Numbered from the stretch's first letter, positions 1 to 59,791 are shown. The stretch is DNA of 64,000 nt from Alphaproteobacteria bacterium (GCA_037387885.1 JARRKQ010000001.1:491-64490); one strand, 5' to 3'. Numbers and translations are program-made. The notes: generated by a model not told the origin, from the sequence alone.

Positions 1-1941
1 CGAAAGGCAGTTCGACTGCTCGACACAGTCGCCGCAGCCCTCGCAGACGTCCTGGTTGATGAAGATGCGCTTGTCGGGATCGGGGAAGGTGCCGCGCTTC
101 CTGCGGCGGCGCTTTTCGGCGGCGCAGGTCTGGTCGTAGATGAGCGCGGAGACGCCCGGCCAGTCGCGCAATTCGCGCTGCACCTCGTCGAGGTCGCGGC
201 GGTGATGGAAGGTGACGCCCGGCGCGAAGTTGGAGCCGATCGGATACTTGTCGGGCTCGTCGGAGACGACGGCGATGCGATCAACGCCCTCATCGGCGAC
301 CTGGCGCGAGATCATCGGCACGGAAAGCGGGCCGTCGACCGGCTGTCCGCCGGTCATGGCGACGGCGTCGTTGAAGAGGATCTTGTAGGTGATGTTGACG
401 CCGGCCGCCTTGGCCGCGCGGATCGCCATCAGGCCGGAATGGTAGTAGGTGCCGTCGCCGAGCGACTGGAAGACATGGTTGGTCGTGGTGTGCGGCGCCT
501 GGCCGATCCAGGTCGCACCCTCGCCGCCCATATGGGTCCAGCCGTAAACGTCGCGGTCCATCCAGACGGCCATGAAGTGGCAGCCGACGCCGCCGACCGC
601 GCGGCTGCCCTCGGGCACGCGCGTTGAGGTGTTGTGCGGACAGCCGGAGCAGAAATAGGGCGTACGGGCGACGATCGCCTCCGAGCCCTTGTGTCCGCCG
701 ATGCTGTCGAGGAACGCCATGCGTTCCTTGAGCGCGCTGTCGTCGCCGTGCATCGCCAGCAGGCGTTTGCCGATGGCGCGGGCAAGCTGCTCGGGTGTGT
801 GCGTGCCGTAAGGCGGCAGCAGCTCGGCGCCCGTCTCGTCGGTCTTGCCGATGATGCGCGGGGATTTCTCGCGGCTGTTGTAGAGCAGCTCCTTCATCTG
901 GGTTTCGATGAAGGCGCGCTTCTCCTCGATGACGAAGACCTCCTCGAGCCCCTTCGCCAGGGTCTGCGCGATGTTGGGCTCGAGCGGCCAGATCATGCCG
1001 AGCTTGAGGAGCCGGATGCCGAGGGCCTCGGCGCGCTTCTCGTCGATCCCGAGAATGCGGAGCGCGCGGCGCACGTCGAGATAGCTCTTGCCGGCGGCGA
1101 CGATGCCCAGGCGCGCCTTGGGCGCGTCGAGCACGATCCTGTTGAGCCCGTTGGCGCGGGCATAGGCCTTGGCGGCCTCGAGCTTGTATTTGTACTGACG
1201 CGTCTCGGCCGGGATGGCCATCTCGCCGACGCGGGTGCTCATGCCGCCCTCGGGGATTTCCAGATCGCGGGGGCGGATGATCTTCGGCTCGTCGGGGTCG
1301 AGGGTGAGCGTGCCCGAGGCCTCGACCGTGTCGGCCTCGGTCTTGTAGCCGACCCAGAGGCCGGAGGTGCGCGAGAGCCCGAAGCCGAGCAGGCCCATTT
1401 CGATGAATTCGGTCATGCCCGCCGGATAGATCACCGGCATCAGCGCATCCATGAAGCTGAACTCGCTGGGCAGCGCGAAGGCCGAGGAGGTGGCGCCGTG
1501 GTCGTCGCCGACGATGGCGAGCACGCCGCCCTTCTCGAAGGCGCCGGCCTGGTTGCCGTGCTTGATCGCGTCCATCGAGCGGGCGAGGCCGGGGCCCTTG
1601 CCATACCAGATACCGAAGACGCCGTCATACTTCGCGCCGGGGAAGAGGTTGACCTCCTGCGTGCCCCAGATCGAGGTGGCAGCGAGGTCTTCGTTCACCC
1701 CTGGCAGGAAGGTGATGTTGTGCTGCTTCAGCAGCGCTTTCACGCGCCAGAGCTCCATGTCGTAGCGCCCGACGGGTGAGCCGCGATAGCCGGAGATGAA
1801 GCCGGCGGTGTTCAAGCCCGCCGCGGCGTCGCGTTTGTGCTGTTCGATTGGCAGGCGGACGAGCGCCTGCAGGCCGGACATGAAAACCTGACCGCGTTCG
1901 GCCAGATACTTGTCGTCGAGGGTGACAACATTCGACGTCAT
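1..1941 (-). CDS. Indolepyruvate/2-oxoacid:ferredoxin oxidoreductase family protein (fused IorA/IorB type). N-terminal ~646 codons; the C-terminus runs off the window edge
   Basis: Minus-strand translation from ATG at 1939-1941, with GGAGG 6 nt upstream, reads MTSNVVTLDDKYLAERGQVFMSGLQALVRLPIEQHKRDAAAGLNTAGFISGYRGSP. That is the canonical IOR-family N-terminus. Near position 1 it reads ...DQTCAAEKRRRRKRGTFPDPDKRIFINQDVCEGCGDCVEQSNC, a ferredoxin-like Cys cluster. The gene is absent from the ORF track only because it is open at the window edge. The plus-strand ORFs 202..627 and 634..1779 are antisense artefacts. Confidence 0.8.
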   Translation of the reverse strand, partial: MTSNVVTLDDKYLAERGQVFMSGLQALVRLPIEQHKRDAAAGLNTAGFISGYRGSPVGRYDMELWRVKALLKQHNITFLPGVNEDLAATSIWGTQEVNLFPGAKYDGVFGIWYGKGPGLARSMDAIKHGNQAGAFEKGGVLAIVGDDHGATSSAFALPSEFSFMDALMPVIYPAGMTEFIEMGLLGFGLSRTSGLWVGYKTEADTVEASGTLTLDPDEPKIIRPRDLEIPEGGMSTRVGEMAIPAETRQYKYKLEAAKAYARANGLNRIVLDAPKARLGIVAAGKSYLDVRRALRILGIDEKRAEALGIRLLKLGMIWPLEPNIAQTLAKGLEEVFVIEEKRAFIETQMKELLYNSREKSPRIIGKTDETGAELLPPYGTHTPEQLARAIGKRLLAMHGDDSALKERMAFLDSIGGHKGSEAIVARTPYFCSGCPHNTSTRVPEGSRAVGGVGCHFMAVWMDRDVYGWTHMGGEGATWIGQAPHTTTNHVFQSLGDGTYYHSGLMAIRAAKAAGVNITYKILFNDAVAMTGGQPVDGPLSVPMISRQVADEGVDRIAVVSDEPDKYPIGSNFAPGVTFHHRRDLDEVQRELRDWPGVSALIYDQTCAAEKRRRRKRGTFPDPDKRIFINQDVCEGCGDCVEQSNCLS

Positions 1942-2031: not shown

Positions 2032-3225
2032 TCATGCTGATATCCCGGTCTCGCGAAGGTGCTTGCACTCGGCCTCCGAGAAACCGGCTTCCATTAGGAT
2101 CTTGTCCGTATGCTCGCCGTATTTGGGCGGAAAGGCAATGTCGCGTTTTGCATAGGGCATATCCACCGCCATGGGTTGCATGCGGATTTCCTTGCCGTCC
2201 GGCAGATGCGTGCGGGTGAGCTTCGATGCAATCGCCGGCATCTCGCGCGCCTGCGGCACGGTGTTGATGCGTGCGTTGGGAATGCCCGCGGCGGCGAATT
2301 CGGCCTCGACCTCGTCGGTCGTGCCGGTCGATGTCGCGTCGCCCAGCTCCTTGTAGATCGCGTGGCGGTCGGCATAGCGCTCGTCGTTGGTGGTGCGGTT
2401 GTCGCGCGCAAGGCCGGCAAAGCGCGGGATCGCGGTCAGGCGCCGCCACTGGGTGTTCGAGCCCATCGCCATGTAGATGAAGCCGTCGCTGGTCGGATAG
2501 ACATTGGTCGGGATGAACTTGCGGTGCGCGTTGCCCCAGCGCGAATACTCTTCGGGATCGGCGTCGAAGTCGATGAGCGGCAGGGTGGTGATGAGCCACG
2601 AGGCGGCGGCCTGCGTCATCGAGACGTCGATACGCTTGCCCTCGCCGGTCTCGGCCTGCTCCGCGAGGCCGAGCATCACGTTGGCGTAGACCTCGTCGCC
2701 GGCTTTGAGGTCGATGATCGGGATGCCCGAGAGCGTCGGCGGGCCGTCCGGAAACCCGGTGGTCTCCATGAAGCCGGTCTGCGCCTGGATCGCCGGATCG
2801 TAGCCGGGGGTCTTGGGATAGTCCGGGCCCATCGCCGAGATGCCGGCCCAGATGAGCTTCGGGTTGATCGCCGACAAGGTCTCGTAGTCGATGCCGAAGG
2901 GCTCGTAGCGGCCGGGCAGGGTGTTGCAGCAGAAGACATCGACCTCGAGCTCGCGCACGATCTTGTGCAGCGCTTCGCGGCCCTCTTCCGATTTGAGGTT
3001 GAGCGCGATCGCCTCTTTGCCGCAGTTGGGCGCGACGAAATAGGAGTGGCGGTCGTCGTCGAGGACCTTCGAGCCGATGTACCGGTTGGGGTCGCCCGGA
3101 TGCGCATCGCCGTCGAGCGGCGTCGACTCGAGCCGGATCACCCGCCAGCCAAGCTGCACGAAGCGCAGCGTCGCGTACGTCATGGAGAGCGCCTGCTCCA
3201 TGGAGAGGACGGTGCGGGGCTTCAT
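2032..3225 (-). CDS. Family III CoA-transferase (CaiB/BaiF type)
   Basis: 397-aa ORF. The block [70 protein letters not shown]...[54 protein letters not shown] matches the conserved core of family III CoA-transferases. The ATG is at 3223-3225. Confidence 0.85.
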
Positions 3226-3329: not shown

Positions 3330-5654
3330 TTACTCCGCCGCCTGGCGCATCCGCTGCTCGCGCTCGAAAAGGCCGCGGGCGAGCTTCTCGGGCGAGACAG
3401 GCGGGTGGTCGATGCGCACGCCGGTGGCGTTGTAGACGGCGTTGCCGACGGCCGGCGCGATCACGATGGTCGGAAGCTCGGCGATGCCCTTGGCGCCGGC
3501 GGGGCCTTCGGAGTCCATGGTCTCGATGAAGGTCATGTCGATGCGTGGCATCTCGGGCGCGGTGAAGAGGTGATAGTCGCGGAAGAACGGGTTCTTCACG
3601 ATGCCCTTCTCGATCTTCAGATCTTCGGAGAGGGCGTAGCCGAGACCCATGGCGATGCCGCCCTCGATCTGGCCCTCGAGGCCGGTGAGGTTGATGACGC
3701 GGCCGACATCCTGGACCGACCACACGGTCTCGACCTTCACTTCGCCGGTGAAGGTGTCGACGATCACCTCGGCGACGTGGACGGCGTTGGAGTACGCGGC
3801 CGACATGTCGCCCACATGGTTCTCGTCCTCCGATTCGGTCGGCGGCTCGTAGTAGTCGGACTGGATGACGAGCTGCGCGGCCTCGCCGGCGAAGTGCATC
3901 TGGCGGAGCAGCCGGTCGAGCGGCATCACCGCGACGCCGTCTTCTGCCTGCACGACATGGCCGCCGCGGAGATCGAGCGCGTCGGCGGAGACGTTCGACT
4001 GCTTGGCCGCCGCATCGAGGATCTGCGCCTTGGCCTTCTGGGCGGCGCGCTGGGCCGACTTGCCGGCGATATAGGTGGTGCGGCTGGCATGCACGCCGAC
4101 ATCCCAGGGCCCGGTCGCGGTGTCGTTGGCGACGATGGTGACGTCGCGCATCGGAATGCCGAGCTCCTCGGCCATGATCTGCGCGATCACCGTGTCGATG
4201 CCCTGGCCGATCTCGCTCGCGCCGGTGATCACGGTGATGCGGGCGTAGTCGTCCATCTTGATGATGGTGCCGCAGCCGTCGGATTTGTGGATCTTGGCGC
4301 CGCCGGCATTGTGCAGCGAGGCGGCGATACCGATGCCGCGCTTGTAGCGCTCGGGGCTGTCCCAGCCGTCCTTGTACTTGGCCCACTTCGCCAGGAAATC
4401 GGATTTCTCCGCCGCGGTGTTGAGGCAGCCGACGAGGTCGATGCAGCCGAGGTTCGAGCCCTGCGGCGTGATCTCGTCGGGCTCATTGGCGTTCTTCAGG
4501 CGGAACTCGATCGGGTTGAAGCCGCCGATCTCCGCCATCTTGTCCATATGCGTCTCGATCGCCCAGGTCGCCTGGACGTTGCCGTAGCCGCGGAAGGAGC
4601 CGGCGAAGGGGTTGTTCGTGTAGACCGCCTTGGCGCTGTAGTGGATGTGCGGCACCTTGTAGTGCGAGGTGATGGTCCGCATCGTGACGTAAGGCGTGGT
4701 CGCGCCCCACGAGGTGTAGCCGCCGTTATTGAGCAGCGTGTCGACCTCGCGAAACGTAAGCGTGCCGTCCTTCTTCATACCCGCCTTGATCTTGAACTCG
4801 ACCGGCTGGCGGGTCGGCGAGGCGATAAACTCCTCCTCGCGGCTGAAGATGACCTTGACCGGGCGGCGGGTTGCCTTGGCGAGCAGCACGCAGATCGGCT
4901 CGTAGGGATAGACGTCGAGCTTGGAGCCGAAGGCCCCGCCGACGGGCGGCTGGACGATGCGCACGTCGCCCGGATGCATGCCGAGCGAGGGGGCGATGTC
5001 CATCTTCATGATGAAGGGATACTGCGACTGCGAGTAGAGCGTGACGCGGCCGTCGGGGTCGATGTCGGCGACGGCGCAGGACACGCCCATGTTGCAGTGG
5101 GTGACGTAGTGGACGTTGTAGTCGCCCTCGACGATGAAGTCGCTCTCGGCCTTGCCCTGCTCGATATCGCCGTGGTCGAAGTGCTGCGCCATGGCGATGT
5201 TGTCGGGCCGCTCCTCGTGGATCACCGGGGCGCCGTCCTTGAGCGCGTCCTCGCATTCGAAGACGGTCGGCAGATCCTCGTATTCGACCGTAATGAGTCG
5301 CAGCGCCTCGTCGCAGGCTTCCTCGCTCTCGGCGGCGACGGCGGCGATCTCGTCGCGGATGCAGCGCACCCGGTCCTTCTTGAGCGGCGGGTTGTCCTTC
5401 AGGACGCCGATGCCGAAATCAGGCGTGTCCGCGCCGGTCAGCACGGCGTGCACGCCGGGGACCGCTTTGGCCTTTTCGGTGTCGATCCGCAGGATCTTGG
5501 CGTGCACCCGATCGGTGCGCAGGATCTTGCCGTAGAGCATGCGCGGCAGGACCATGTCGTTCACGTAGCGCGTGCGGCCGGTCGTCTTGTCGGGCGCGTC
5601 CATCTTGCGCACGCGCTTGCCGATGATGGTGTCCTTCTCGATGATCTTGGTCAT
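3330..5654 (-). CDS. Xanthine dehydrogenase / aldehyde oxidase family molybdopterin-binding large subunit
   Basis: 774-aa ORF (MTKIIEKDTIIGKRVRKMDAPDKTTGRTRYVNDMVLPRMLYGKILRTDRVHAKI...). It is the same architecture as CoxL/XdhB-type Mo-hydroxylase large subunits. Genes for the 2Fe-2S and FAD subunits lie immediately upstream in the same operon. Confidence 0.85.
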   Translation of the reverse strand: MTKIIEKDTIIGKRVRKMDAPDKTTGRTRYVNDMVLPRMLYGKILRTDRVHAKILRIDTEKAKAVPGVHAVLTGADTPDFGIGVLKDNPPLKKDRVRCIRDEIAAVAAESEEACDEALRLITVEYEDLPTVFECEDALKDGAPVIHEERPDNIAMAQHFDHGDIEQGKAESDFIVEGDYNVHYVTHCNMGVSCAVADIDPDGRVTLYSQSQYPFIMKMDIAPSLGMHPGDVRIVQPPVGGAFGSKLDVYPYEPICVLLAKATRRPVKVIFSREEEFIASPTRQPVEFKIKAGMKKDGTLTFREVDTLLNNGGYTSWGATTPYVTMRTITSHYKVPHIHYSAKAVYTNNPFAGSFRGYGNVQATWAIETHMDKMAEIGGFNPIEFRLKNANEPDEITPQGSNLGCIDLVGCLNTAAEKSDFLAKWAKYKDGWDSPERYKRGIGIAASLHNAGGAKIHKSDGCGTIIKMDDYARITVITGASEIGQGIDTVIAQIMAEELGIPMRDVTIVANDTATGPWDVGVHASRTTYIAGKSAQRAAQKAKAQILDAAAKQSNVSADALDLRGGHVVQAEDGVAVMPLDRLLRQMHFAGEAAQLVIQSDYYEPPTESEDENHVGDMSAAYSNAVHVAEVIVDTFTGEVKVETVWSVQDVGRVINLTGLEGQIEGGIAMGLGYALSEDLKIEKGIVKNPFFRDYHLFTAPEMPRIDMTFIETMDSEGPAGAKGIAELPTIVIAPAVGNAVYNATGVRIDHPPVSPEKLARGLFEREQRMRQAAE

Positions 5655-5688
5655 GGAGCGGGTTCCCTAGCGCATGAGGTCGATTGAT

Positions 5689-6165
5689 TCAGGCGGTGGC
5701 CGTTCGCCCGGCGGCGATGACGGCGTCGATGATCTTCTTGTAGCCGGTGCAGCGGCAGACATTGCCTTCGAGGCCGCGCCGGATCTCGTCTTCCGACATG
5801 TTCGGATTGCGGTCGAGCAGATAGCGGATCTGCATGATCATGCCGGGCGTGCAAAAGCCGCACTGCACCGCGCCATGCTCGATGAAGGCGTCCTGCACGG
5901 GATCGATGCCGGCGTCGGTCCACAGGCCTTCGACCGTGAGCACCTCGCGGCCCTCGAGATCGACCGCGGGCATGAGGCAGGAATTGAGCGACTGGCCGTC
6001 CACGATCACGGTGCAGGCGCCGCATTCGCCCTCGCCGCAGGCGAGCTTGGCGCCGGCGAGGTCGAGGCGCTCGCGCAGGATCGTCAGCGCCGAGGCGCCG
6101 ACCGGAACGCCGACGCGGGTCGTCCGGCCGTTCAGTGTGAAAGTAACGTCAACCTGAAGCGGCAT
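5689..6165 (-). CDS. (2Fe-2S)-binding small subunit of the molybdenum hydroxylase
   Basis: It carries the two cluster motifs CGEGECGACTV and CGFCTPGMIMQ...CRCTGY. The likely start is MPLQVDVTFTLNG at 6165, and the long upstream extension in the ORF track is probably not translated. It overlaps the stop of the FAD subunit gene by 17 nt. Confidence 0.85.
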   Translation of the reverse strand: MPLQVDVTFTLNGRTTRVGVPVGASALTILRERLDLAGAKLACGEGECGACTVIVDGQSLNSCLMPAVDLEGREVLTVEGLWTDAGIDPVQDAFIEHGAVQCGFCTPGMIMQIRYLLDRNPNMSEDEIRRGLEGNVCRCTGYKKIIDAVIAAGRTATA

Positions 6166-7039
6166 GTCCGAGCTCCTGCATGAGATAGGCGCGTGCGAGG
6201 CGGCGGCGGTACCAGGCCGAGCCGCGATGGTCGTCGATCGGCGCGATCTCGGCGTCGAGCGCCTCGGCGGCGGTGTCAATTAAGGCATCATCGATGCTCT
6301 TGCCCTCCAGCGCGGCCTCGGTCTTGCGGGCGCGGATCGGCGTGGGCGCCACGGCCCCCAGCGCGAGCCGCACGTCGCGCAACGTTCCACCCTCGACATA
6401 GGCAGCGAAACCGAGCGAAACCAGGGCGATTTCGAGCGCCGGCCGCGGGCCGGTCTTGGCGAAGCCGCCATAAAAATTCTTGCCGGGAACCGCGAATTCG
6501 ACGCCGGTGATGAGCTCCTCCGGTGCGATCACGGTCTTGCCAGGGCCGGCGAAGACCTCGTTTATCGGCACGGTGCGCGTCTTGACCTTGCCGGCCTTCA
6601 TGGAGGCGAGCGAGACCTCGGCATCGAGGCAGAGCAGGGGGATCACGAAGTCGGCCGCGGGCGAGGCGTTGGCGATATTGCCGCCGACGGTCGCCGCATT
6701 GCGAATTTGTACGCTTGCGAACTTATCGGCCGCAGCTCGAAGCAGCGGGACTTTCTTGGCCAAATCCTTGTGCTCGAGCACCTGCGTCATGGTGACGAGC
6801 GCGCCGAGACGGATGCGGCCCGCCTTCACCTCGATGCCCGCAAGCTCGGGGACGTTCTTAATGTTGACGAGGCGCTTGCCGACCGCGCGGCCCGGCTCGT
6901 CCTTCTGGACCCAGAGGTCGGTGCCGCCGGCAACGCAGGTCGCGGCGCCATCCGCCAACGCGTCGAGCGCTTCGTCGAGCGAGCGGGGCGCAGCGTATTC
7001 CTCGATCGCCGGCGGTTGTTGGAGCTGGGGAAGGGTCAT
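6149..7039 (-). CDS. FAD-binding subunit of the molybdenum hydroxylase (CoxM/XdhA-like)
   Basis: 296 aa with a FAD-binding PCMH-type domain (AGGTDLWVQ...TVGGNIANASPAAD). At this length it lacks the Cys-rich insertion seen in 4-hydroxybenzoyl-CoA reductase HcrB. Confidence 0.85.
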   Translation of the reverse strand: MTLPQLQQPPAIEEYAAPRSLDEALDALADGAATCVAGGTDLWVQKDEPGRAVGKRLVNIKNVPELAGIEVKAGRIRLGALVTMTQVLEHKDLAKKVPLLRAAADKFASVQIRNAATVGGNIANASPAADFVIPLLCLDAEVSLASMKAGKVKTRTVPINEVFAGPGKTVIAPEELITGVEFAVPGKNFYGGFAKTGPRPALEIALVSLGFAAYVEGGTLRDVRLALGAVAPTPIRARKTEAALEGKSIDDALIDTAAEALDAEIAPIDDHRGSAWYRRRLARAYLMQELGHAASG

Positions 7040-7066: not shown

Positions 7067-8692
7067 CTAGAACCGCATCGGTTCCTGATAGCGGCCGAAC
7101 GCTTCCGTCAGCACGGCGGTGATCTCGCCGACCGAGGCGTAAGCCTTCACCGCATCCATGATCGCGGGCATCGTGTTGGCGTCGCCCTCGGCGGCGGCCT
7201 TAAGGTCGGCCAGCGCCTTGTCGACGGCGGCCTGGTCGCGGGTGGCCTTGACGTCGTTGAGGCGGCCGATCTGCCGGTCGGTGTCTTCCTTCTTGTAAGG
7301 ATGCATCTCGACCTCGGGCTCGTCCTCCTCGATCTCGTAGCAGTTGACGCCGACCTTGCGGTATTCGCCGGTCTCGAGGTCCTTCTGGTGCTCGTAAGCC
7401 TGCTTGGAGACGTGGGCCTGGATCTCGCCGTCGGCGATCATCTTGACGATGCCGCCCTTGTCGTCGAGCTCCTTCATGATGCGGACCATCTCGGCTTCCA
7501 TCTGGTTCGTCAGCGTCTCGACGTAGTAGGAGCCGGCGAGGGGGTCGACCGTATCGGTCATCCCCATCTCCTCGATCAGGAGCTGCATGGTGCGCAGCGA
7601 GATGCGCTGCGCCTTTTCCGACGGGATCGTGTACGCCTCGTCGTAGCAGCAGAGCGCGATGGTCTGCGCGCCGGAGAGCACGCAGCCGAGCGCATAGTAG
7701 GCGCCGCGCATGATGTTGTTCTCCGGCTGCTCGATGGTGAGGCCCGCGCCGCCGCCGCCGGCGATCATGCGCAGCCACATCGATTTGGGGTTCTTGGCGC
7801 CGTACTTGTTCTTGACGATCTTGGCCCAGAGGCGGCGGCCCGCGCGGAACTTGCAGACCTGCTCGAAGAACTGGCCGAAGATGTTGTAGTTGAACGACAT
7901 CCGGTAGGCGAACTCGTCGATGTCGAGCCCGCGCTTCAGCACCTCGTCGAAGTATGCGCTGGCGATGGCGAAGCCGTAGGCCATCTCTTCCGTCGGCGTC
8001 GCGCCCGATTCGCGGATGTGATAGCCGCAGACCGAGACGGGCGAGTAGAGCGGCGCGTGCTTGGCGCAATACTCCATCGTGTCGGCGACGAGGCGCACCG
8101 AGGGCTCGACCGGATAGATCCATGTGCCGCGGCCGACGAACTCTTTCAGAATGTCGTTCTGGCAGGTGCCGCGGAGCTTCGAAAGATCGAAGCCGCGTTT
8201 CTCGGCCATCGCCAGATACATCGCGATCATGATCGCGGCGGTGCCGTTGATGGTGAGCGAGACGGTGATGTTCTCGATGTCGATACCGTCGAAGGCGATC
8301 TCGACGTCTTTCAGCGTGTCGATCGCCATGCCGACGCGGCCGACCTCGCCGCCGGCCATCGGATCGTCGCTGTCATAGCCGCACTGGGTCGGCAGGTCGA
8401 AGGCGACGTTGAGGCCTGTATTGCCGGTCTCGATCAGATATTTGAAGCGCTTGTTCGTGTCCTCGGCGTTGCCAAAGCCCGTGTACTGGCGCATCGTCCA
8501 TGGCCGCTTGCGGTACATCATGTCGTGGATGCCGCGCGTGAACGGGTATTCGCCCGGCTTGCCGATTCCGTCGGGCGCCCCTTCATCGGGCAAGCGGGTC
8601 GCCTCCACGTCCTCTTCGGTATAGATCGGCTTGATCTCGATGCCCGACTCGTTGCGGCGGGTATCGGCGTCCGGTTTACGCTGCACGTTCAA
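7067..8692 (-). CDS. Methylmalonyl-CoA-mutase-family acyl-CoA mutase, large catalytic subunit (split form, no fused B12 domain)
   Basis: 541 aa. Conserved blocks PFTRGIHDMMYRKRPWTMRQYTGFGNAED and GLNVAFDLPTQCGYDSDD, then TCQNDILKEFVGRGTWIYPVEPSVR and GYHIRESGA. The substrate-contact positions are Tyr (RQYTGF) and Arg (FVGRGTW), as in methylmalonyl-CoA mutase, not the Phe/Gln pair of isobutyryl-CoA mutase. The start is a TTG at 8690-8692 with AAGGAG 7 nt upstream. Confidence 0.85.
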   Translation of the reverse strand: MNVQRKPDADTRRNESGIEIKPIYTEEDVEATRLPDEGAPDGIGKPGEYPFTRGIHDMMYRKRPWTMRQYTGFGNAEDTNKRFKYLIETGNTGLNVAFDLPTQCGYDSDDPMAGGEVGRVGMAIDTLKDVEIAFDGIDIENITVSLTINGTAAIMIAMYLAMAEKRGFDLSKLRGTCQNDILKEFVGRGTWIYPVEPSVRLVADTMEYCAKHAPLYSPVSVCGYHIRESGATPTEEMAYGFAIASAYFDEVLKRGLDIDEFAYRMSFNYNIFGQFFEQVCKFRAGRRLWAKIVKNKYGAKNPKSMWLRMIAGGGGAGLTIEQPENNIMRGAYYALGCVLSGAQTIALCCYDEAYTIPSEKAQRISLRTMQLLIEEMGMTDTVDPLAGSYYVETLTNQMEAEMVRIMKELDDKGGIVKMIADGEIQAHVSKQAYEHQKDLETGEYRKVGVNCYEIEEDEPEVEMHPYKKEDTDRQIGRLNDVKATRDQAAVDKALADLKAAAEGDANTMPAIMDAVKAYASVGEITAVLTEAFGRYQEPMRF

Positions 8693-9083
8693 GGGTCTTC
8701 TCCTTGATGAAATCGACGATTTCGTTGAGCTTCGAGCCGGTGTTGAACACCGCGTCGAGCCCGATCTTGCGCAAGGCCTCGTGGTCCTCGCGGGGCACGT
8801 TGCCGCCGATCACCCAGAGGCGGTCGTCGAGCCCGTATTCCTTCAGCAGTTCGGCAATGCGCTCGCAGATCGGAATATGCGAGCCGGAGAGGATGGAGAG
8901 CGCGATCACGTCGACATCCTCGTCGCGGGCGGCGTTGGCGATCATCTCCGGGCTCTGGCGTAGGCCCGTATAGATGACCTCGAAGCCGGCATCGACCAGC
9001 GCGCGCACCACGATCTTGGCCCCGACGTCATGGCCGTCGAGGCCGGGCTTGGCGACCAGGATGCGGACTTTCTTGTCAGCCAT
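8676..9083 (-). CDS. Cobalamin-binding small subunit of the split acyl-CoA mutase
   Basis: 135 aa (MADKKVRILVAKPGLDGHDVGAKIVVRALVDAGFEVIYTGLRQSPEMIANAA...). It has a DxHxxG-type B12-binding motif (GLDGHDVG). Its 3' end overlaps the start of the large subunit gene by 17 nt. Confidence 0.85.
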   Translation of the reverse strand: MADKKVRILVAKPGLDGHDVGAKIVVRALVDAGFEVIYTGLRQSPEMIANAARDEDVDVIALSILSGSHIPICERIAELLKEYGLDDRLWVIGGNVPREDHEALRKIGLDAVFNTGSKLNEIVDFIKEKTLERAA

Positions 9084-9101
9084 CGTGCTGCGCTCCGATA
9101 T

Positions 9102-10802
9102 CTATTCCGCCGCCTGCGACGCCGGCTCGTAGCCGTAGACTTCGCGGGCGGTGTCTTCTGAAATGATGCCGTTCTTGACCTCTTCGGCGAGCTTGGTGCG
9201 GTCGCGCTTCTTGGGATCGCCGTAGCCGCCTCCGCCGCCGGCCTGCTGGAAATAGACCGTGCCCTTCGGCAGTCCGGTAATGAGGTCCTTGTTGAGCGGC
9301 ACCACGTCGTTGCCGTCGGGGGTGGTGAGCTTGATCGTGTTGAGCGTGCCGTCGCCGCCGCCGAAGAGCCCGAAGGCGGGCTCGTAGTCGCCGTCGCCGA
9401 AGGTCACGAGCTGGGTGTTGTCGGAGCCGAATTCGTAGACCGTCTCGATGCCGATTCCGCCGCGCCACTGTCCGGCGCCGGCCGAGTCGGTCAGATATTC
9501 GTGCTTGATCAAGCGGTGCGGCGACTGCTGTTCGAACATCTCGTAGTCCTGGTCGAGCACGCCGCCCGAGGCGTCGATCATACCGATATGGTCGTAGCCG
9601 TCGGTGCCATTCATGGCGCCGGCGCCGCCCTTCATGCCCATGAAGAAGATGTCGACGTAGTCGTCGTCCTTCTCCTCGTCGAAGCCGGTGGTGAGCGACG
9701 AGAGCAGATTGTTCCAGCCGGCCGTCACGCGGTCGGGAATGGCCGGCGCGAGTGCGCGCTGGATCGCGTCTGCGTTGGGCGGGCAGAGGTGGTTGCCGAA
9801 GGTGGTCGCCGCCGGATAGCCGGCGTTCAGGATCGTGCCTTCGGGAATGATGATCTCCAGCGGCGCCAGCATACCCTCGTTATGCGGAATGTCGGGATTG
9901 ACCATCTGGAGCAGCGTCAGCGCCGTGGCGCTCGCGCTCGAGGTATAGGTGCCGTTGACGAAGCCGTTGGTGCGCGCATCGGTCTTGGAATAGTCGAAGG
10001 TGATCGCCTTGTCCTTGACCTCGATGTCGACGCGGATGGTGTATTTGGAGCCCTTGTTCTTGCCGTCGTAATAGACGTAGCCCTCGCCCGAGTAATTCCC
10101 GTTCGGGATCGAGCCGATCTCGGCTTCCATCATCTTCTGCGTGGCATCGAAAAGCGCCAACTTGTGCCGCTCGAAGACGTCGAGCCCGTGTTTTTCCAAC
10201 AGCGCCACCATGCGCCGCGCGCCGACATTGGTCGCGCCCATCTGCGAGCGCATGTCTTCCTGGACGATGTCGAAGCGGATATTGGCGAAGATGAGGTCCC
10301 AGACATCCTTGCGGAAGGTGCCGCCGTCATAGACCTTGACCGGCGGGATGCGGATGCCTTCCTGCCAAACCTCTACGGCGTTGGGGTTGTAGCCGCCAGC
10401 GACCGCGCCGCCGATATCGGCCTGGTGGCCCTTGACCGCCGTCCAGGCGACCAACTTGTCCTCAAAGAAGATCGGCCGGAACACGGCAACGTCGTTGTTC
10501 TGGTTGCCCATCGAGAAGACGTCGTTGTGGAAGATGACGTCGCCCGGCTTAAAGTCACCCTCGAAATACTCGATGATGTATTTGCACACCGGCGCCAGCG
10601 AGAAGGCGAGGATCGGCAGGTTCTCGGTCTGCTCCAGCATCCGGCCTTCGCCGTCGTAGAGCCCGGTCACGAAATCCTTGGCCTCGCACAAGATGGGCGA
10701 GCGCGCGGTTTGCTCGACCGACATGCTCATCTCGTCGGTGATCGACTTGAAGGCGCGCGCGAAGACCGACAGCAGGATCGGATCGATATCGGATTTGCTC
10801 AT
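9102..10802 (-). CDS. Hydantoinase B / oxoprolinase family protein (HyuB-like)
   Basis: 566 aa, starting MSKSDIDPILLSVFARAFKSITDEMSMSVEQTARSPILCEAKDFVTGLYD, a typical HyuB N-terminus. It overlaps the hyuA stop by 4 nt (ATGA). Confidence 0.85.
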   Translation of the reverse strand: MSKSDIDPILLSVFARAFKSITDEMSMSVEQTARSPILCEAKDFVTGLYDGEGRMLEQTENLPILAFSLAPVCKYIIEYFEGDFKPGDVIFHNDVFSMGNQNNDVAVFRPIFFEDKLVAWTAVKGHQADIGGAVAGGYNPNAVEVWQEGIRIPPVKVYDGGTFRKDVWDLIFANIRFDIVQEDMRSQMGATNVGARRMVALLEKHGLDVFERHKLALFDATQKMMEAEIGSIPNGNYSGEGYVYYDGKNKGSKYTIRVDIEVKDKAITFDYSKTDARTNGFVNGTYTSSASATALTLLQMVNPDIPHNEGMLAPLEIIIPEGTILNAGYPAATTFGNHLCPPNADAIQRALAPAIPDRVTAGWNNLLSSLTTGFDEEKDDDYVDIFFMGMKGGAGAMNGTDGYDHIGMIDASGGVLDQDYEMFEQQSPHRLIKHEYLTDSAGAGQWRGGIGIETVYEFGSDNTQLVTFGDGDYEPAFGLFGGGDGTLNTIKLTTPDGNDVVPLNKDLITGLPKGTVYFQQAGGGGGYGDPKKRDRTKLAEEVKNGIISEDTAREVYGYEPASQAAE

Positions 10803-12910
10803 GCCACGGCCTCCAGACTGGGTTTGACCAGCTCTTCGCGGCCCTTCTGGTAGACCGCAAACGAGCCGTACTGGTCGCAGACGCAGTCGTAGGACTGGGT
10901 GACCAGGATCGAGGTGTTTTCCTGTTCGATGATCGCGGGCCCCGTGATCCGATAGCCGAACTTGGTGTTGTGGCCATCATAGACCGGGACGGTCGCCGCT
11001 TCGCCGGTTTCGGGCACGATGATCTTGCGCTCGCCCTTGAGCGCGGGCGAGGGGTCAGCCCCGGCATAGCTCTCTTGGGTGTAGGCCGGCTTGTCGGTGC
11101 GGCCGACCGCCTGCAGGCGGACATTGATGATCTCGACCGGCGTGCCCTGCTCCTCCAGCGAATAGCCGTAGAGCCGGTTGTGCTCGGCGTGGAAGAGCGC
11201 CTTGATCGCCTCGCCGTCCTGCGCCTCGACGGCGCTGATCGGTGCCTCGTGCGTGACCTCGTGATACTGTTTGGCGTAGCGCGCATCGAGCTTGAGGATG
11301 TAGTCGCGCCGATCCTTTGAGATGCTCTCGCTGTCGAGCAAAGCGTCGCCCTCCGCGCGCATCTCGGCGATCAGCGCGTTCAAAGTCTGCCAGTCGCCGT
11401 CGTCGATGCGGCGGACATAGCTGCGCACGAAGTCGTGCTTCAAGTCCGACATCAGCATGCCGGCGGCGCAAAAGATCGAGCTTTCGCGCGGTACGATGAG
11501 CAGTGGGATTTCGAGCTCCTCGCCGATCATGCAGGCGTGGTTGGGGCCGGCGCCGCCGGCGACCACCATCGGGAACTCGCGCGGATCGAAGCCGCGCTTG
11601 ATGGTGATCTCGCGCACGCCCTGGGCCATATTGGTGTTGATGACGCGGTACATGCCGAGCGCGGCTTCCTCGACCGACATGCCGAGCGGCTTGGCGATCT
11701 TCTCTTCGATCGCCTTGCGCGCCGCATCGACGTCGAGCTTCAGTTTGCCGCCGGCGAAGTAGCCCGGATCGAGATAGCCCAGCACCAGATCGGCATCGGT
11801 GCAGGCCGGCAGCTCGCCGCCCTGGCCGTAGCAGACCGGGCCCGGATCGGCGCCCGCGCTTTGCGGGCCCATGCGCAAGAGGCCGCCTTCGTCGATCCAG
11901 CCGATCGAGCCGCCGCCGGCGCCGATGGTGACGATGTCGAGCATCGGCAGCGCGATACGGTAGCGGTTGATCTCGCCCTCGTTCGCCGTGATCGGCACGC
12001 CGTCGAGTACCATCGCGGCATCGAAGCTGGTGCCACCCATATCGACGGTGAGGCAGTTCTTCTGGCCGTGCGCCTCGGCGTAGCCGAGCCCGGCGACCGG
12101 ACCCGCCGCCGGGCCGGAGAGCAGCGTCATCGCCGCCGTCGTCTGCGCCGTCTCGGGCAGCACCACGCCGCCATTCGACTGCATGATCAAGAGCACGCCC
12201 TTGAAGCCGGTATCGGCCAAACGCTTCATCAGCGCGTCGATGTAAGCGCGCAGCTTGGGGCCGTTGTACGAATTCAGAACCGTCGTCGAGACGCGGTTAT
12301 AGAAGCGGATCGAGGGCAACAGCTCTGCGGAAACCGTGAGATAGGCGTCCGGCATTTCGCGTGCGACGAGCTCGCCCGCAGCCTTCTCATGCGCGGGATT
12401 GGCGAAGGCGTTCATGAAGCAGATCGCCACCGCCTCGACGCTCTCGGCCTTGAAGGTCTCGATCGCGGCGCGGACATCGTCGAGCTCGAGGCCTTCGATC
12501 TCGCGGCCCTTGCGGTCGAGCCGGCCGCGCACGCCGGCGCGCAGATAGCGCGGCACCAGCGGCGGCACGTTGGTGTAGCGGTTGTTGTACTGCTCCTCGC
12601 GGATGCCGCGGCGCATTTCCAAAGCGTCGCGCACGCCCTCGGTGGTGATGAGGCCGGACTTGGCGCCCGTGCGGGTCAGCGTCGCGTTCGTCGTCACCGT
12701 GGTGCCGTGGACGATCGTGTCGATCGTCGGTGCGAAGGCCTCCAGCGTGCTGCCGGCGGCCTTGGCGATGTCGGTCAGCCCGTTGATCAGGCCGATGGAG
12801 GGATCCTTAGGCGTCGACAGCGTCTTGAAGATCTGCGGTTCCGCGTCGTCCGAGACGACCAGGAAATCCGTGAAGGTGCCGCCAACGTCGATGCCGATCT
12901 TGGTCGTCAC
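10799..12910 (-). CDS. Hydantoinase A / oxoprolinase family protein (HyuA-like)
   Basis: 703 aa. The GTG start reads MTTKIGIDVGGTFTDFLVV, followed by the ASKHA-fold ATPase motifs typical of hydantoinase A. A GGAAGGGA ribosome-binding site lies upstream. No acetone-carboxylase gamma subunit gene follows it. Confidence 0.85.
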   Translation of the reverse strand: MTTKIGIDVGGTFTDFLVVSDDAEPQIFKTLSTPKDPSIGLINGLTDIAKAAGSTLEAFAPTIDTIVHGTTVTTNATLTRTGAKSGLITTEGVRDALEMRRGIREEQYNNRYTNVPPLVPRYLRAGVRGRLDRKGREIEGLELDDVRAAIETFKAESVEAVAICFMNAFANPAHEKAAGELVAREMPDAYLTVSAELLPSIRFYNRVSTTVLNSYNGPKLRAYIDALMKRLADTGFKGVLLIMQSNGGVVLPETAQTTAAMTLLSGPAAGPVAGLGYAEAHGQKNCLTVDMGGTSFDAAMVLDGVPITANEGEINRYRIALPMLDIVTIGAGGGSIGWIDEGGLLRMGPQSAGADPGPVCYGQGGELPACTDADLVLGYLDPGYFAGGKLKLDVDAARKAIEEKIAKPLGMSVEEAALGMYRVINTNMAQGVREITIKRGFDPREFPMVVAGGAGPNHACMIGEELEIPLLIVPRESSIFCAAGMLMSDLKHDFVRSYVRRIDDGDWQTLNALIAEMRAEGDALLDSESISKDRRDYILKLDARYAKQYHEVTHEAPISAVEAQDGEAIKALFHAEHNRLYGYSLEEQGTPVEIINVRLQAVGRTDKPAYTQESYAGADPSPALKGERKIIVPETGEAATVPVYDGHNTKFGYRITGPAIIEQENTSILVTQSYDCVCDQYGSFAVYQKGREELVKPSLEAVA

Positions 12911-12980
12911 GGTGCCATCCCTTCCGGTTTATTGGATCACACAAACACAGCCAGTCTTCGCCAGCTTTCGAGGTGACTAT

Positions 12981-13016
12981 AACACAATATTGTTGGACGT
13001 CCAACAATATTGTGTT
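12981..13016. promoter_or_regulatory. Perfect 36-bp palindrome in the divergent hyuA/ech promoter region; a putative MarR operator
   Basis: AACACAATATTGTTGGACGTCCAACAATATTGTGTT equals its own reverse complement (checked base by base). It is AT-rich in a high-GC context, and it lies between the hyuA start (12910) and the crotonase start (13135). Confidence 0.6.
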
Positions 13017-13134
13017 TGCCGGCATGCCCAAGCCGGCCGCTTGCGGTCGCCCGCGGCGCCCGGTAGCGTCGGGCATCATATGGGAGACAACCGGGCGGCA
13101 AAACCACCGGATTAGAAAGGGAGCGAGGCGAGCC

Positions 13135-13926
13135 ATGGCGGAGAATGCATTGCTGTTCGAGGTGCGCGACGGGGTTGCGCGGATCACGCTGAACCGGCCC
13201 GACGAGGCCAATCCGCTAGCGGTCGAAAGCGCCAAGAAGCTGTTCGACTATGCGATCGAGATCGACCAGGATCCCAGCATCCGCGCCGTGATCTTGACCA
13301 GCACCGGCCGGTTCTTCTCCGCCGGCGGCGACCTCAAGTTCTTCCACGACAATGCCGACCGGGTCGGCCATGTGCTGAAGGAAACGACGAGCTATCTGCA
13401 CGCCGCGCAGTCGCGCTTCGCGCGCATGGCAGCACCAGTCGTAGTCGCGATCAACGGGATTGCGGCGGGCGGCGGGGCGAGCATCGCCTTTTGCGGCGAC
13501 ATCGTTCTGGCGGCGCAGTCGGCGACCTTCACCATGGGCTACACGGCGGCCGGCCTCTCGCCGGACGGTTCCTCATCCTACTACCTGCCGCGGCTGGCGG
13601 GCCTGCGGCGGGCGCAGGAGCTCTTCCTGACCAATCGCCGGTTCACCGCGGACGAGGCGGCCGAATGGGGCCTCATCACCCGCGTCGTGCCGGACGATAA
13701 GCTGATGGAGGAGGCCGACGCTCTGGTCGCGCAGCTGGCCAAGGGGCCGACCCAGGCCTTCGGCTCGGTGAAGGCGCTGTTGGCGGATACGTTCACCAAC
13801 ACGCTGGAAACCCAGCTGGAGATGGAGACCCGCCACATCGCGGCCAACGGGGCGGGGCATGACGGCCGCGAAGGTGTTGCGGCCTTCGTGGCCAAGCGCA
13901 AGCCCGACTTCAAGGGCGTGCAATAG
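13135..13926 (+). CDS. Enoyl-CoA hydratase/isomerase (crotonase) family protein
   Basis: The start reads MAENALLFEVRDGVARITLNRPDEANPL, preceded by a GGGAG ribosome-binding site. The oxyanion-hole region reads FFSAGGDLK ... AINGIAAGGG. The ORF-track start at 12973 is an upstream extension and probably not translated. Confidence 0.85.
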   Translation: MAENALLFEVRDGVARITLNRPDEANPLAVESAKKLFDYAIEIDQDPSIRAVILTSTGRFFSAGGDLKFFHDNADRVGHVLKETTSYLHAAQSRFARMAAPVVVAINGIAAGGGASIAFCGDIVLAAQSATFTMGYTAAGLSPDGSSSYYLPRLAGLRRAQELFLTNRRFTADEAAEWGLITRVVPDDKLMEEADALVAQLAKGPTQAFGSVKALLADTFTNTLETQLEMETRHIAANGAGHDGREGVAAFVAKRKPDFKGVQ

Positions 13927-13990
13927 GCGCAGGGAATTTGGCCGTGGAGACGGCCGCGCGTTTTCCGCGAAAATCCGTGCAACGATACGC

Positions 13991-14010
13991 TTTGTTGGAC
14001 GGCAAACAAA
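13991..14010. promoter_or_regulatory. Operator-like inverted repeat upstream of marR, related to the 36-bp palindrome
   Basis: TTTGTTGGACGGCAAACAAA shares the TTGTTGGACG...AACAA core with the 12981 palindrome. It sits 20 nt upstream of the marR start codon. Confidence 0.4.
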
Positions 14011-14029
14011 TCCCGGCTATGATGCGCCC

Positions 14030-14557
14030 ATGAGCGATATCAGCGATATGAGCGACAGGCCCGATCCGGCCCATTCAGATGCGGCGGCGCAGACCGGCAA
14101 TGGCCAAGACCGCCATGGCGCGATCGATTTCGGCGACCTCGACGACTTCGTGGGCTTTCAGCTGCACCGCGCGCGCAACGTTGCCGCCTCGGTGCTGCAC
14201 AAGCTGATCGCGCCCGAGTTCGTGCCGGGGCATTTCCCCATCCTTTATCTGATCGCACAGAACCCCGACCGTACCCAATCGGCGATCGCCAGGGCCGTGG
14301 GGCTCGACCGCTCGTCGCTGGTGCCGATCCTCAACCGGTTCGAGAAGAGCGGCTGGGTCCAGCGCATTCCCTCGCAGGGCGACAAGCGCGCCCATGCGCT
14401 TCGCCTGACGCCCGCGGGCGAGCGCAAGATGCAGGACCTCCGCGACAAGGTGATGTCGATGGAGGACCGGATCTCCGACGCGCTGGGCGACGACGGCCAG
14501 AAAGCCATGCTCGACTATCTCCGGCGCATCCAGGACGCATTTGATCAAACGCGGTAG
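14030..14557 (+). CDS. MarR family transcriptional regulator
   Basis: MSDISDMSDRPDP...QSAIARAVGLDRSSLVPILNRFEKSGWVQRIPSQGDKRAHALRLTPAGE is a MarR winged-helix fold. The start is placed at the ATG at 14030, and the 13859 start in the ORF track gives an unlikely N-terminal extension. Confidence 0.8.
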   Translation: MSDISDMSDRPDPAHSDAAAQTGNGQDRHGAIDFGDLDDFVGFQLHRARNVAASVLHKLIAPEFVPGHFPILYLIAQNPDRTQSAIARAVGLDRSSLVPILNRFEKSGWVQRIPSQGDKRAHALRLTPAGERKMQDLRDKVMSMEDRISDALGDDGQKAMLDYLRRIQDAFDQTR

Positions 14558-57624: not shown

Positions 57625-59079
57625 TCAAAATTTAGCCCAGGGCAGCCAGGTGGCGACCTCGGGGACCATGATGATCAGCGCCACCAGCGCCATGGCGCAG
57701 GCCATGAAGGGGATCGCGGCCAGGCAGATCTCGCTGAACTTGGTGCCCGGCGGCGCCACGCCCTGCATGACGAAGAGCAGAAGCCCGAAGGGCGGCGTGG
57801 TAAAACTGATCTCCATCGCCAGCAGCATGATCACGCCGAACCAGATCTGTGTGACCTCGAGCGGCAGGCCGAACTGAAGCTTGGCGATCACGGGGAAGAA
57901 GATCGGTACCGTGAGTAGCATCATCGCCAGCTGGTCCATGAACATGCCGAGCAGCAGCAGGATGCCGATCATCATCAGCAGCATCACGTAGCCCGACACG
58001 TCGAAGCTGGTCACCCATTCGATCAGCTTGACGCTCGCCCCCGAGGCGGCCAGCACGTTGGAGAACAGCGACGAGCCCAGCAGGATCACCAGCGCGATCA
58101 CGGTGACCCGCCCCGCGCCCCACATCGACTTCCACAAGGCTTTGCCGAAAGCGGGCGCGAAGCGCTTGAGCTGCTCCTTGGCCTCGTCGCGCCGCGCCAC
58201 CGCTTCGATGTCGCGGCCGCCGCTGAACAGCAACCGCACCAGCGGGGCGAAGAAGAGATAGATGAGCCCCAGCAGGATCACGCCCACCGAGCCATAGGCC
58301 GCGGCCTCCGACGGGGTGGCAATGCCGCCCATGATCAGCGCGATGACCATGCCGATGATCGAGATCATCGGCATCACGTCGCGGGCGAACATCTTGAGGC
58401 GCACCATGTAGGGCACGTATTCGACGTCGTAAGCCGGCGCCGCGTCGGGATCGATAGTGGCGCGCACGAAGATCAGCACCGCATACATGAGCGCCAGGAT
58501 GATGCCGGGCACGATGCCGGCGATCAGCAGCTTGCCGATGTCGATCTCGGCGATGGTGCCGAGGAGGACCGCCAGCGCCGAGGGCGGGATCAGCATGGCG
58601 AGCCCGCCCGTGCCCAGGATCGGGCCGATCGACATGCTCTTCTTGTAGCCGCGCTTGGTCATCTCCGGGACCATCAGCGTGCCGAGCAGCGCTGTCGAGC
58701 CCATCGACGAGCCCGAGAGCGTGGCGAGCGCCGTGCCGCCGGCGACCGTCACATAGGAGAGCCGCGCCGGCACCCGGCCCATCAGCATCTCCACCGCGTT
58801 GAACATCCGGTTGGCGAGCCCGGTATGGAAGAAGAGCTCGCCCATCAACAGGAACATTGGTATGGGCACGATTGCGAAGATCGCGATGTTCGAAAACGCG
58901 TTGTCCGCAAGCTGAAAGACGCTCGCCTCGAGATTGGCATCGAAGCCGCCGAAGCGCCCATAGATCAGATAGGCGGTGAACGTGCAGACGATCACGAAGG
59001 CGATGCCCACCGGCACGCCGATGAACATCAGGACCAGGATCGATCCCAGGAGCAGCAGCAGGATCCAGTACCACTCCAT
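57625..59079 (-). CDS. dctM: TRAP transporter large permease
   Basis: 484 aa and highly hydrophobic. The DctM-family blocks are present (MGSTALLGTLMVPEM ... GTIAEIDIGKLLIAGIVPG). Confidence 0.9.
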   Translation of the reverse strand: MEWYWILLLLLGSILVLMFIGVPVGIAFVIVCTFTAYLIYGRFGGFDANLEASVFQLADNAFSNIAIFAIVPIPMFLLMGELFFHTGLANRMFNAVEMLMGRVPARLSYVTVAGGTALATLSGSSMGSTALLGTLMVPEMTKRGYKKSMSIGPILGTGGLAMLIPPSALAVLLGTIAEIDIGKLLIAGIVPGIILALMYAVLIFVRATIDPDAAPAYDVEYVPYMVRLKMFARDVMPMISIIGMVIALIMGGIATPSEAAAYGSVGVILLGLIYLFFAPLVRLLFSGGRDIEAVARRDEAKEQLKRFAPAFGKALWKSMWGAGRVTVIALVILLGSSLFSNVLAASGASVKLIEWVTSFDVSGYVMLLMMIGILLLLGMFMDQLAMMLLTVPIFFPVIAKLQFGLPLEVTQIWFGVIMLLAMEISFTTPPFGLLLFVMQGVAPPGTKFSEICLAAIPFMACAMALVALIIMVPEVATWLPWAKF

Positions 59080-59652
59080 CTAGAGCTCGCTCGCCAGGTC
59101 GCGCTTCTGCTCTTCGAGCTCGATGCGGTCGCTCGCCACCCCGGCGATGCCGACATGCATCGGCTCCTCGGTGAAGGCGAAGCGCAAAAACTCCACCCCC
59201 ATCAGGAAGAAGCCGATGGGAAAGGGGATCGTGCTGATCCAGAGCGGGATGTTGAACTGGGCGCGCAGCTCGTCGAACGACATCGTGTCGCCCCAGCGCT
59301 CGGTGAAGAGCCCCCAAGTGTACCAGGTCCAGATGAAGCAGATGAGCGCCGCCGCCGTGACGATGCCGCGCGAGAGGATCTTGCGGGCGCGCTCGGGGAT
59401 CGCGGCGGTCAGCAGCTCGATATAGATGTGCGCGCGCTGGCGCACCAGCCAGGGCGAGCCCAGGAAGAGGATGTAGACGAATCCGTACTCGATGGCGATG
59501 TTGGCAAACGGCGTATAGGACCAGCCGGCGGCGCGGAAAACCGTCACATAGACGATCATCACCATGATCGCGCCGACATAAAGCGCCGCAATGGCCATCA
59601 ACAGCCAAAGCAGACGTCCCCACAGCCGATCAACGGCCTTCAGGACTGACAT
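59080..59652 (-). CDS. dctQ: TRAP transporter small permease
   Basis: Four predicted TM helices. It lies immediately upstream of and abutting dctM. The start is uncertain, at 59652 or 59679. Confidence 0.75.
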   Translation of the reverse strand: MSVLKAVDRLWGRLLWLLMAIAALYVGAIMVMIVYVTVFRAAGWSYTPFANIAIEYGFVYILFLGSPWLVRQRAHIYIELLTAAIPERARKILSRGIVTAAALICFIWTWYTWGLFTERWGDTMSFDELRAQFNIPLWISTIPFPIGFFLMGVEFLRFAFTEEPMHVGIAGVASDRIELEEQKRDLASEL

Positions 59653-59791
59653 TGCCCCCCTTGCTGTCCCCTGTGCCATTGGCGCCCCACACGCCGAATG
59701 ACGCCCTCATTGACGCCGATGGCGCCGAAAAATCGATCCCGGGACCAGCTGCGAGATGGCCCCGGGATCATCGATGAGCCGACCTCAGTGA

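Follow-up and report, generated by a model that had tools for sequence, protein, structure and literature searches.

What does a perfect, AT-rich palindrome of 36 bp do between two divergent catabolic genes? The question is raised by a 64,000-nucleotide stretch of DNA from an uncultured alphaproteobacterium (GCA_037387885.1, JARRKQ010000001.1:491-64490; hereafter the window), in which the palindrome, here called O1, separates hyuA, the first gene of an operon of hydantoinase-type and other catabolic genes, from a gene for a crotonase (enoyl-CoA hydratase/isomerase, ECH) that is followed by marR, the gene of a MarR-family regulator. Our answer is that the 20-bp core of O1 is quite probably the operator of the neighbouring MarR, with a predicted regulon made up of the hyuA operon, marR itself and the distant dctPQM genes for a tripartite ATP-independent periplasmic (TRAP) transporter. 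In principle this is a standard MarR repressor circuit, and O1 with its MarR is a new example of an ordinary bacterial switch.

O1 (AACACAATATTGTTGGACGTCCAACAATATTGTGTT, 12981-13016) consists of two 18-nt arms that are 100% complementary with zero spacer, and its G+C content is 33%, against 66% for the whole window. It is far beyond chance: the runner-up among perfect palindromes in the window has an arm of 9 nt, and the longest arm obtained in 200 shuffles was 12 nt. The 36-mer is present as a single copy in the 64 kb, between the start of hyuA (GTG at 12910, minus strand) and the crotonase ATG (13135). A second site, O2, occupies 13991-14010 in its wider form (TTTGTTGGACGGCAAACAAA), ahead of the marR ATG at 14030, and its core is identical to that of O1 at 16/18 positions. 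When TTGTTGGAYRTCMAACAA is used as a query with up to 2 mismatches, it is found at 3 places in the 64 kb, namely O1, O2 and a third site, O3, at 60921-60938, where 0.00 are expected (100 shuffles). An earlier, sequence-only reading of this DNA had described the exact 36-bp AT-rich palindrome between hyuA and the crotonase gene, as well as a related site with a common core 20 nt upstream of the MarR gene; we confirm the coordinates and arm complementarity of the first and the shared core of the second. O3 had not been noticed in that reading. At 10 bp, the two ACAATATTGT sub-palindromes were judged too short to serve as dimer sites in their own right, and cruciform extrusion at O1 is unlikely because its centre (GGACGTCC) is GC-rich.

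The evidence that carries the operator assignment is comparative. Orthologous loci were gathered from MarR homologues, from a genome scan in which a MarR alignment was run against 185,579 species genomes (yielding 4 loci, all in uncultured metagenome-assembled genomes, MAGs) and from the metagenome scan described below; 13 of them are distinct, with MarR proteins 55-95% identical to that of the window, and a protein identical to the window MarR is itself recorded from a MAG. In all 13 distinct loci, which belong to uncultured Alphaproteobacteria, the core is found at the hyuA promoter, the marR promoter or both, within intergenic DNA that otherwise diverges. Measured outward from the dyad, symmetry is present in 13/13 loci at positions +-2, 3 and 5-10, in 7-9/13 at +-11-15 and in 3-4/13 at +-16-18. 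Because symmetry decays beyond +-10, the conserved unit is the 20-bp core ATTGTTGGAYRTCMAACAAT, which has the form by which such operators are recognised, a (pseudo)palindrome of ~16-20 bp composed of two inverted half-sites (TTGTTGGAC and GTCCAACAA). ACAATA/TATTGT flanks occur in some lineages, and perfection over the full 36 bp is confined to the window, L054 and L006. Across 17 distinct related loci amounting to 215 kb we counted 26 sites, every one of them at hyuA, marR or dctP promoters.

The loci fall into two gene orders. In the first (window, L001, L004, L006, L007, L054, L065 and L066), hyuA and ECH diverge from O1, and O2 then precedes marR. In the second (L008, site at 5960-5977; L009, site at 872-889; L017; L023; L051), hyuA diverges from marR, which is followed by ECH, and a single site between the two divergent genes would serve both. 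Comparison of the two arrangements implies that the swap in gene order would have been accompanied by duplication of the operator.

Where these sites lie relative to likely promoters bears directly on what they could do. A consensus scan of 12800-14200 placed 2 sigma-70-like promoters where 0.3 were expected, and both overlap the operator cores (Table 1). In the predicted hyuA promoter (P_hyuA), the -35 hexamer and the entire spacer lie within O1, the spacer being the left arm, and this geometry is retained in orthologues, whose hyuA side has a TATA-type -10 at 17 nt from the TTGGAY half-site. In the predicted marR promoter (P_marR), the -10 is 6 nt from the ATG (14018-14032 region) and there is no Shine-Dalgarno sequence, so that a leaderless mRNA is predicted; the marR transcript is probably of this kind. 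The TATGAT hexamer stands at a constant distance from O2 in all 8 loci that have O2, with the ATG 5-7 nt further on in 7/8 (the exception is L054). The operators thus overlap the predicted -35/-10 elements of both the target promoter and the regulator's own promoter, as located by the consensus scan and with conserved geometry. Because the TTGGAC half-sites double as predicted -35 hexamers, a repressor on either core would cover the -35 and the spacer. Between the crotonase stop codon and O2 there is in addition a hairpin, GGCCGT-GGAG-ACGGCC (13940-13964), with TTTT a few bases later. It could act as a weak terminator between the ECH and marR transcription units; it was not picked up by the terminator scan.

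From these elements we envisage the following circuit. A MarR dimer would bind the 20-bp inverted repeat. At O1, one half-site coincides with the -35 of P_hyuA and the remainder of the palindrome takes up the spacer as far as the extended -10; since the -35 and spacer are occupied in this way, bound repressor would exclude RNA polymerase. The minus-strand operon that would be silenced starts 88 nt from the O1 centre and comprises hyuAB and the genes for a B12-dependent mutase, a molybdenum hydroxylase, a CoA-transferase and an indolepyruvate:ferredoxin oxidoreductase-like (IOR-like) protein. O2 is placed likewise with respect to the P_marR -35 and spacer, and the outcome there would be negative autoregulation; through O3, which lies upstream of dctPQM, uptake of the substrate would come under the same control; and an effector would release the repressor.

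The protein itself belongs to the MarR family, with matches to Pfam MarR (4e-13) and MarR_2 (3e-13) that are both over the gathering cut-offs and define a MarR-type winged helix-turn-helix, and with 37 MarR structures among its matches in the PDB. A link between protein and motif comes from a metagenome scan that was blind to gene content, in which the 20-mer was compared with 241 million records and 58 loci were returned. Among the 34 high-GC matches, a MarR-family open reading frame (ORF) lies within 400 bp in 10, and 7 more are orthologues of the first gene order, with marR ~1 kb away. None of the 24 low-GC matches has a MarR nearby, and these are most readily explained as chance occurrences in AT-rich sequence. 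Matches occur at one site per contig, save one tandem pair on a low-GC contig (L020). In six lineages (L010, L014, L031, L048/L053, L062 and L064) a MarR only 23-30% identical to that of the window is found beside the same 20-bp motif. These six distant proteins retain the recognition-helix segment LDRS[ST][LV]V, and residues N78, P79, Q83, L92, D93, R94, S95 and V98 are invariant.

The inclusion of dctPQM in the regulon is suggested by O3, which is conserved upstream of dctP in L069-71 (DctP 89% identical). In L068, on the same contig as L004, it is represented by two tandem sites at 3839-3876 (ATGTTGGTCATCCAACAA-TA-TTGTTTGATGTCCAACAA) that are 20 bp apart from start to start. O3 is retained in 2/3 other lineages examined. 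This uptake system lies 47 kb away, and gene order alone would not have tied it to the pathway. Upstream of dctP in a further locus, L072, a different palindrome (AATGATATGTCATTAT) is found at ~3830-3850; it may be a site of another regulator, for example the adjacent GntR/UTRA protein.

Several observations weigh against assigning these sites to MarR or against the extent of the regulon, and the support throughout is comparative. It is not obvious that the operator governs the crotonase gene. A candidate promoter for it, CTTGCG-N18-TAGCGT, is found at ~13041-13070, 40-60 bp past the palindrome, and in an alignment of the intergenic DNA the block CTTGCR-N18-TAGCGT is kept in most loci of the first gene order, so this gene appears to have a promoter of its own outside the operator. 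(A mirror-image crotonase promoter on the right arm was ruled out, as its -10 position reads TTGCCG.) O3 is absent upstream of dctP in L072, which derives from the same MAG as L009, and the promoter scan could place no sigma-70-like promoter at O3. In three metagenome loci (L036, 153-172; L060, 10024-10043; L067, 2071-2090) the motif occupies the promoter region from which a DUF2478 gene and a molybdenum-hydroxylase operon (Fer2 plus large subunit) diverge, with no MarR on the contig DNA examined, and five other high-GC motif families likewise lack a MarR nearby on the contig DNA examined. Finally, the nearest homologues from cultured bacteria, the MarR proteins of Sneathiella marina (L073) and Sneathiella sp. 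(L074), are 36-40% identical and have the same helix, yet there is no site within 9 kb of their genes, which follow malate synthase G and an HbpS-like gene, unlike the window context; conservation of the helix alone therefore does not predict the motif.

We nevertheless regard the MarR operator assignment as likely. The sequence-only reading had already taken the two sites for MarR operators and marR for an autoregulated gene, and comparison argues for both, the core being present at the hyuA and/or marR promoter in 13/13 loci and the motif being associated with MarR genes in metagenomes. Its broader proposal, that one operator controls the whole cluster, appears only partly right: the operator does overlap the predicted promoters of the hyuA operon and marR, but outside it lies a conserved candidate promoter for the crotonase gene, and the predicted regulon reaches beyond the cluster to the TRAP transporter.

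If the functional unit is the 20-bp core, the perfection of the remaining sequence has to be explained separately. By comparison among the loci, the outer 8 bp of each arm appear to be a clade-specific extension outside the conserved operator. Within this clade, the window and L006 have 4 differences in ~236 aligned intergenic positions, and 2 of these form a mirror pair at palindrome positions 2 and 35 (AAC..GTT versus AGC..GCT), so that L006 has another perfect 36-mer, AGCACAATATTGTTGGACGTCCAACAATATTGTGCT. A rough estimate of the chance of such a mirror pair is 1-4 in 1000 (6 change pairs x 18 mirror pairs / 27,730 position pairs x ~1/3 to 1 for complementarity). In the left arm the change falls on the 'n' of TGnTATAGT, the extended -10, so that constraint on the promoter does not explain the pairing.

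One possible explanation, which we consider somewhat unlikely, is that the outer arms are kept perfect by a mutational mechanism, intrastrand template switching or quasi-palindrome correction, and that only the core is functional. Quasi-palindrome mutagenesis is an established mechanism in E. coli by which a change is copied from one arm to the other, and the mirrored double substitution in L006 is the outcome that it yields. Folding of the strand gives a stable DNA hairpin (-15.3 kcal/mol, z -6.3), as the mechanism needs, the right arm is without a detectable promoter role, and the remoter orthologues have lost the symmetry and kept the core. Templated correction leaves the origin of the extension unexplained, however, as well as the recurrence of ACAATA/TATTGT flanks in the separate lineage L009/L017/L023.

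It is more doubtful that the full 36 bp is the protein-binding unit, on which several MarR dimers would sit side by side in a 20-bp register and give cooperative, switch-like repression, whether as a dimer-of-dimers or as a central dimer plus two flanking dimers. The same mirrored substitution, which keeps both the window and the L006 36-mers perfect, could be read in this way, as could the symmetry retained at +-11-15 in 7-9/13 loci and the tandem sites of L068, with their 20-bp spacing and a CAACAA-TA-TTGTT junction that is the same as the flanks of the window palindrome. But symmetry at +-16-18 is limited to the clade of the window, the flanks are quarter-sites only (ACAA/TTGT), the left arm is constrained also by the P_hyuA spacer and extended -10, and the sites associated with distant MarR proteins show no extension; one dimer suffices for the core, and stoichiometry is not derivable from sequence. 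The dimer-of-dimers binding suggested by the sequence-only reading is possible but rather unlikely. A bolder proposition, to which we give similarly little credence, is that the 36-bp symmetry has been selected for an array of a central dimer and flanking dimers on the ACAA/TTGT quarter-sites, with the tandem sites of L068 as a parallel, and that the core together with LDRS[ST][LV]V is a portable operator-regulator code. If true, this would mean an unusually cooperative switch and an uncharacterised MarR subfamily controlling several catabolic clusters in uncultured Alphaproteobacteria.

We think it very improbable that the sites belong to some other regulator, such as the GntR/UTRA protein encoded next to dctPQM or the IclR protein of a neighbouring aromatic cluster, and that their association with MarR is incidental. 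It is true that dctPQM has a GntR gene beside it, both in the window and in all the orthologous dctP loci compared, and that the syntenic downstream cluster has an IclR gene, but L072 has the GntR gene without the motif, the motif tracks MarR genes across unrelated metagenome contexts, and it is found on the promoter of marR itself in every locus. Least credible of all is that this AT-rich, strongly folding intergenic palindrome is a repetitive extragenic palindromic (REP)-type or other mobile-element repeat, or an RNA hairpin acting as terminator or attenuator, unrelated to MarR, since the 36-mer occurs once in 64 kb, related sites are confined to promoters of three orthologous types, and the palindrome lies between divergent genes, where it would be untranscribed given the predicted promoters, and has no T-tract. 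The sequence-only reading had named recurrence at many unrelated loci as the mark of a REP-type element. Within the window and related loci, the many dispersed copies that define REP elements and bacterial interspersed mosaic elements (BIMEs) were not found: the 3 sites in 64 kb are all at promoters, and so are the 26 in 215 kb of related loci. A search of the palindrome region against Rfam matched no family, viral contigs searched with the extended motif gave no match, and a plasmid near-identity search of 9000-16100 returned short unrelated matches only and no close relative.

With the 20-bp core as the likely MarR operator, the circuit can be compared with MarR systems that have been characterised. 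The closest solved structure to the window MarR is CouR of Rhodopseudomonas palustris (PDB 6c28, with 6c2s and 6c9t; E 6.8e-17, residues 30-168 aligned), followed by PcaV and SlyA. Both proteins are alphaproteobacterial and have an N-terminal extension, and the R. palustris operator, as read from published primers (TTGTTATACTCTATAACTA...), shares the TTGTT start and AAC-type half-site ends. The R. palustris site differs in its spacing, however, being TTGTTATA-N3-TATAACTA (8+3+8) compared with TTGTTGGA-N2-TCCAACAA (8+2+8) in the window, and in the interior of the half-site. Nor is R. palustris CouR an orthologue of the window MarR, which belongs to no curated NCBIfam family: its best match is the Saro_0803-type model, at 65.8 bits where the cut-off is 200. 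Neither the curated family model, which stays under its cut-off, nor the operator sequence, which differs, places the window MarR in the CouR/FerR-type acyl-CoA-sensing subgroup.

In layout, the predicted circuit is the same as that of CouR in Rhodococcus jostii RHA1, where divergent promoters have a single box that overlaps their -35 boxes, and more boxes precede a transporter gene and other operons (PMC4737184). That regulator, a MarR-family protein governing the cou regulon, is autoregulated and is released by p-coumaroyl-CoA, not by the free acid (PMC4737184). The window has the same arrangement of a box on the -35, one box per divergent pair and boxes before a transporter, whereas the RHA1 box, cATTGA-N5-TCAATg, has another sequence and spacing and its pathway is for hydroxycinnamates rather than iaa-like. 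IadR (MarR_73) of Variovorax, like IacR a MarR repressor of aerobic auxin catabolism, has its 24-bp binding site in the DNA that separates the regulator gene from the catabolic operon, and the ligand releases the repressor (PMC9613470). The window shares with IadR/IacR a putative MarR repressor site beside a catabolic operon, but their sequences are remote (IadR structure 7kfo, E 6.9e-5), they serve the aerobic iad/iac pathway, and their ligand is indoleacetate (IAA) itself. Literature searches with the motif strings returned unrelated primers only, within the literature open to search.

The genes of the putatively repressed operon suggest what the switch would respond to. The anaerobic indoleacetate (auxin; iaa) pathway of Aromatoleum involves a hydantoinase-type 2-oxoindoleacetyl-CoA lactamase, the mutase IaaGH, the CoA-transferase IaaL, the ligase IaaB and the dehydrogenase IaaF; the set further has a binding protein, IaaM, and two regulators, IaaQ and IaaR (PMC8360864, PMC5214803). 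Like A. aromaticum and A. evansii, the window has a hydantoinase-type lactamase, a two-subunit B12 mutase (IaaGH-like) and a family III CoA-transferase (IaaL-like) in one cluster, and it also has a crotonase and a solute-binding protein. The Aromatoleum iaa cluster encodes a molybdenum hydroxylase as well. Unlike Aromatoleum, the host of the window is an uncultured alphaproteobacterium, and the resemblance is at the family level only. Because the gene set fits the hallmark iaa enzymes, an indoleacetate-like aromatic acid is the probable substrate. Against this, neither an IaaB-like (indoleacetate-CoA) ligase nor an IaaF-like (benzylmalonyl-CoA) dehydrogenase was found among the ~40 window ORFs screened, with the operon running off the left end of the window, beyond which it may continue; this leaves the substrate assignment plausible, though incomplete. 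In L008, a related locus, the gene after hyuB encodes an acyl-CoA dehydrogenase (IaaF-like).

The intermediates of the iaa pathway are CoA esters (PMC8360864). Because they are, and because the nearest solved relative, CouR, is an acyl-CoA sensor, an acyl-CoA pathway intermediate is by analogy a better guess for the effector than free indoleacetate. No published operator for IaaR or IaaQ was found within the literature open to search, nor has one been reported there for clusters of this kind, for which the window now offers a concrete 20-bp motif and three candidate target promoters. The regulon of an uncultured lineage thereby becomes testable with synthetic DNA and recombinant protein, the regulator is a candidate sensor for intermediates of the indoleacetate pathway, and the recognition-helix signature finds related regulators in metagenomes.

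Table 1. Positions in the window of the operator sites, predicted promoters and genes discussed in the text.
Feature	Position	Strand	Remarks
O1, perfect 36-bp palindrome	12981..13016	no strand	conserved operator core 12989-13008 (ATTGTTGGACGTCCAACAAT), kept in 13 distinct orthologous loci
O2, imperfect operator, TTGTTGGACGGCAAACAA	13992..14009	no strand	20 nt before marR; kept in all 8 distinct loci of order ECH-marR
O3, TTGCTGGATATCCAACAA	60921..60938	no strand	124 nt upstream of dctP start codon (GTG, 60794-60796), 47 kb from cluster
P_hyuA (predicted)	12976..13004	-	-35 TTGGAC (reverse complement of 12999-13004), 17-nt spacer, extended -10 TGnTATAGT, TGTTATAGT (12976-12984)
P_marR (predicted)	13995..14023	+	-35 TTGGAC (13995-14000), 17-nt spacer, -10 TATGAT (14018-14023)
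Indolepyruvate:ferredoxin oxidoreductase-family gene	1..1941	-	cut by window end
Family III CoA-transferase	2032..3225	-	family-level match
Molybdenum hydroxylase, xanthine-dehydrogenase family	3330..7039	-	FAD subunit 6149-7039, 2Fe-2S subunit about 5689-6165, Mo subunit 3330-5654
B12-dependent acyl-CoA mutase	7067..9083	-	small B12-binding subunit 8676-9083, large subunit 7067-8692; family-level matches
hyuB, hydantoinase B-type subunit	9102..10802	-	Pfam, NCBIfam
hyuA, hydantoinase A-type subunit	10799..12910	-	first gene of putatively repressed operon; Pfam, NCBIfam
Crotonase (ECH)	13135..13926	+	Pfam ECH_1
marR, 175-aa MarR-family regulator	14030..14557	+	~35-aa N-terminal extension; Pfam MarR/MarR_2
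TRAP transporter, putative distant regulon member	57625..60796	-	dctP 59792-60796, dctQ 59080-59679, dctM 57625-59079

The DNA beyond marR has features of its own. In the window and in L004, but not in L001, the gene after marR is a HemN-like radical SAM gene (14677-16026 in the window). Further downstream there is a second syntenic cluster of aromatic type, without a MarR-type site, at 16842-25745 in the window, 11397-19648 in L001 and 12763-20285 in L004. Its genes encode an aspartate-dehydrogenase-like protein, a thiamine pyrophosphate (TPP) enzyme, glyoxalase-fold proteins, an IclR regulator, a hydrolase, a short-chain dehydrogenase/reductase (SDR), a cupin and a Rieske/VanA oxygenase.

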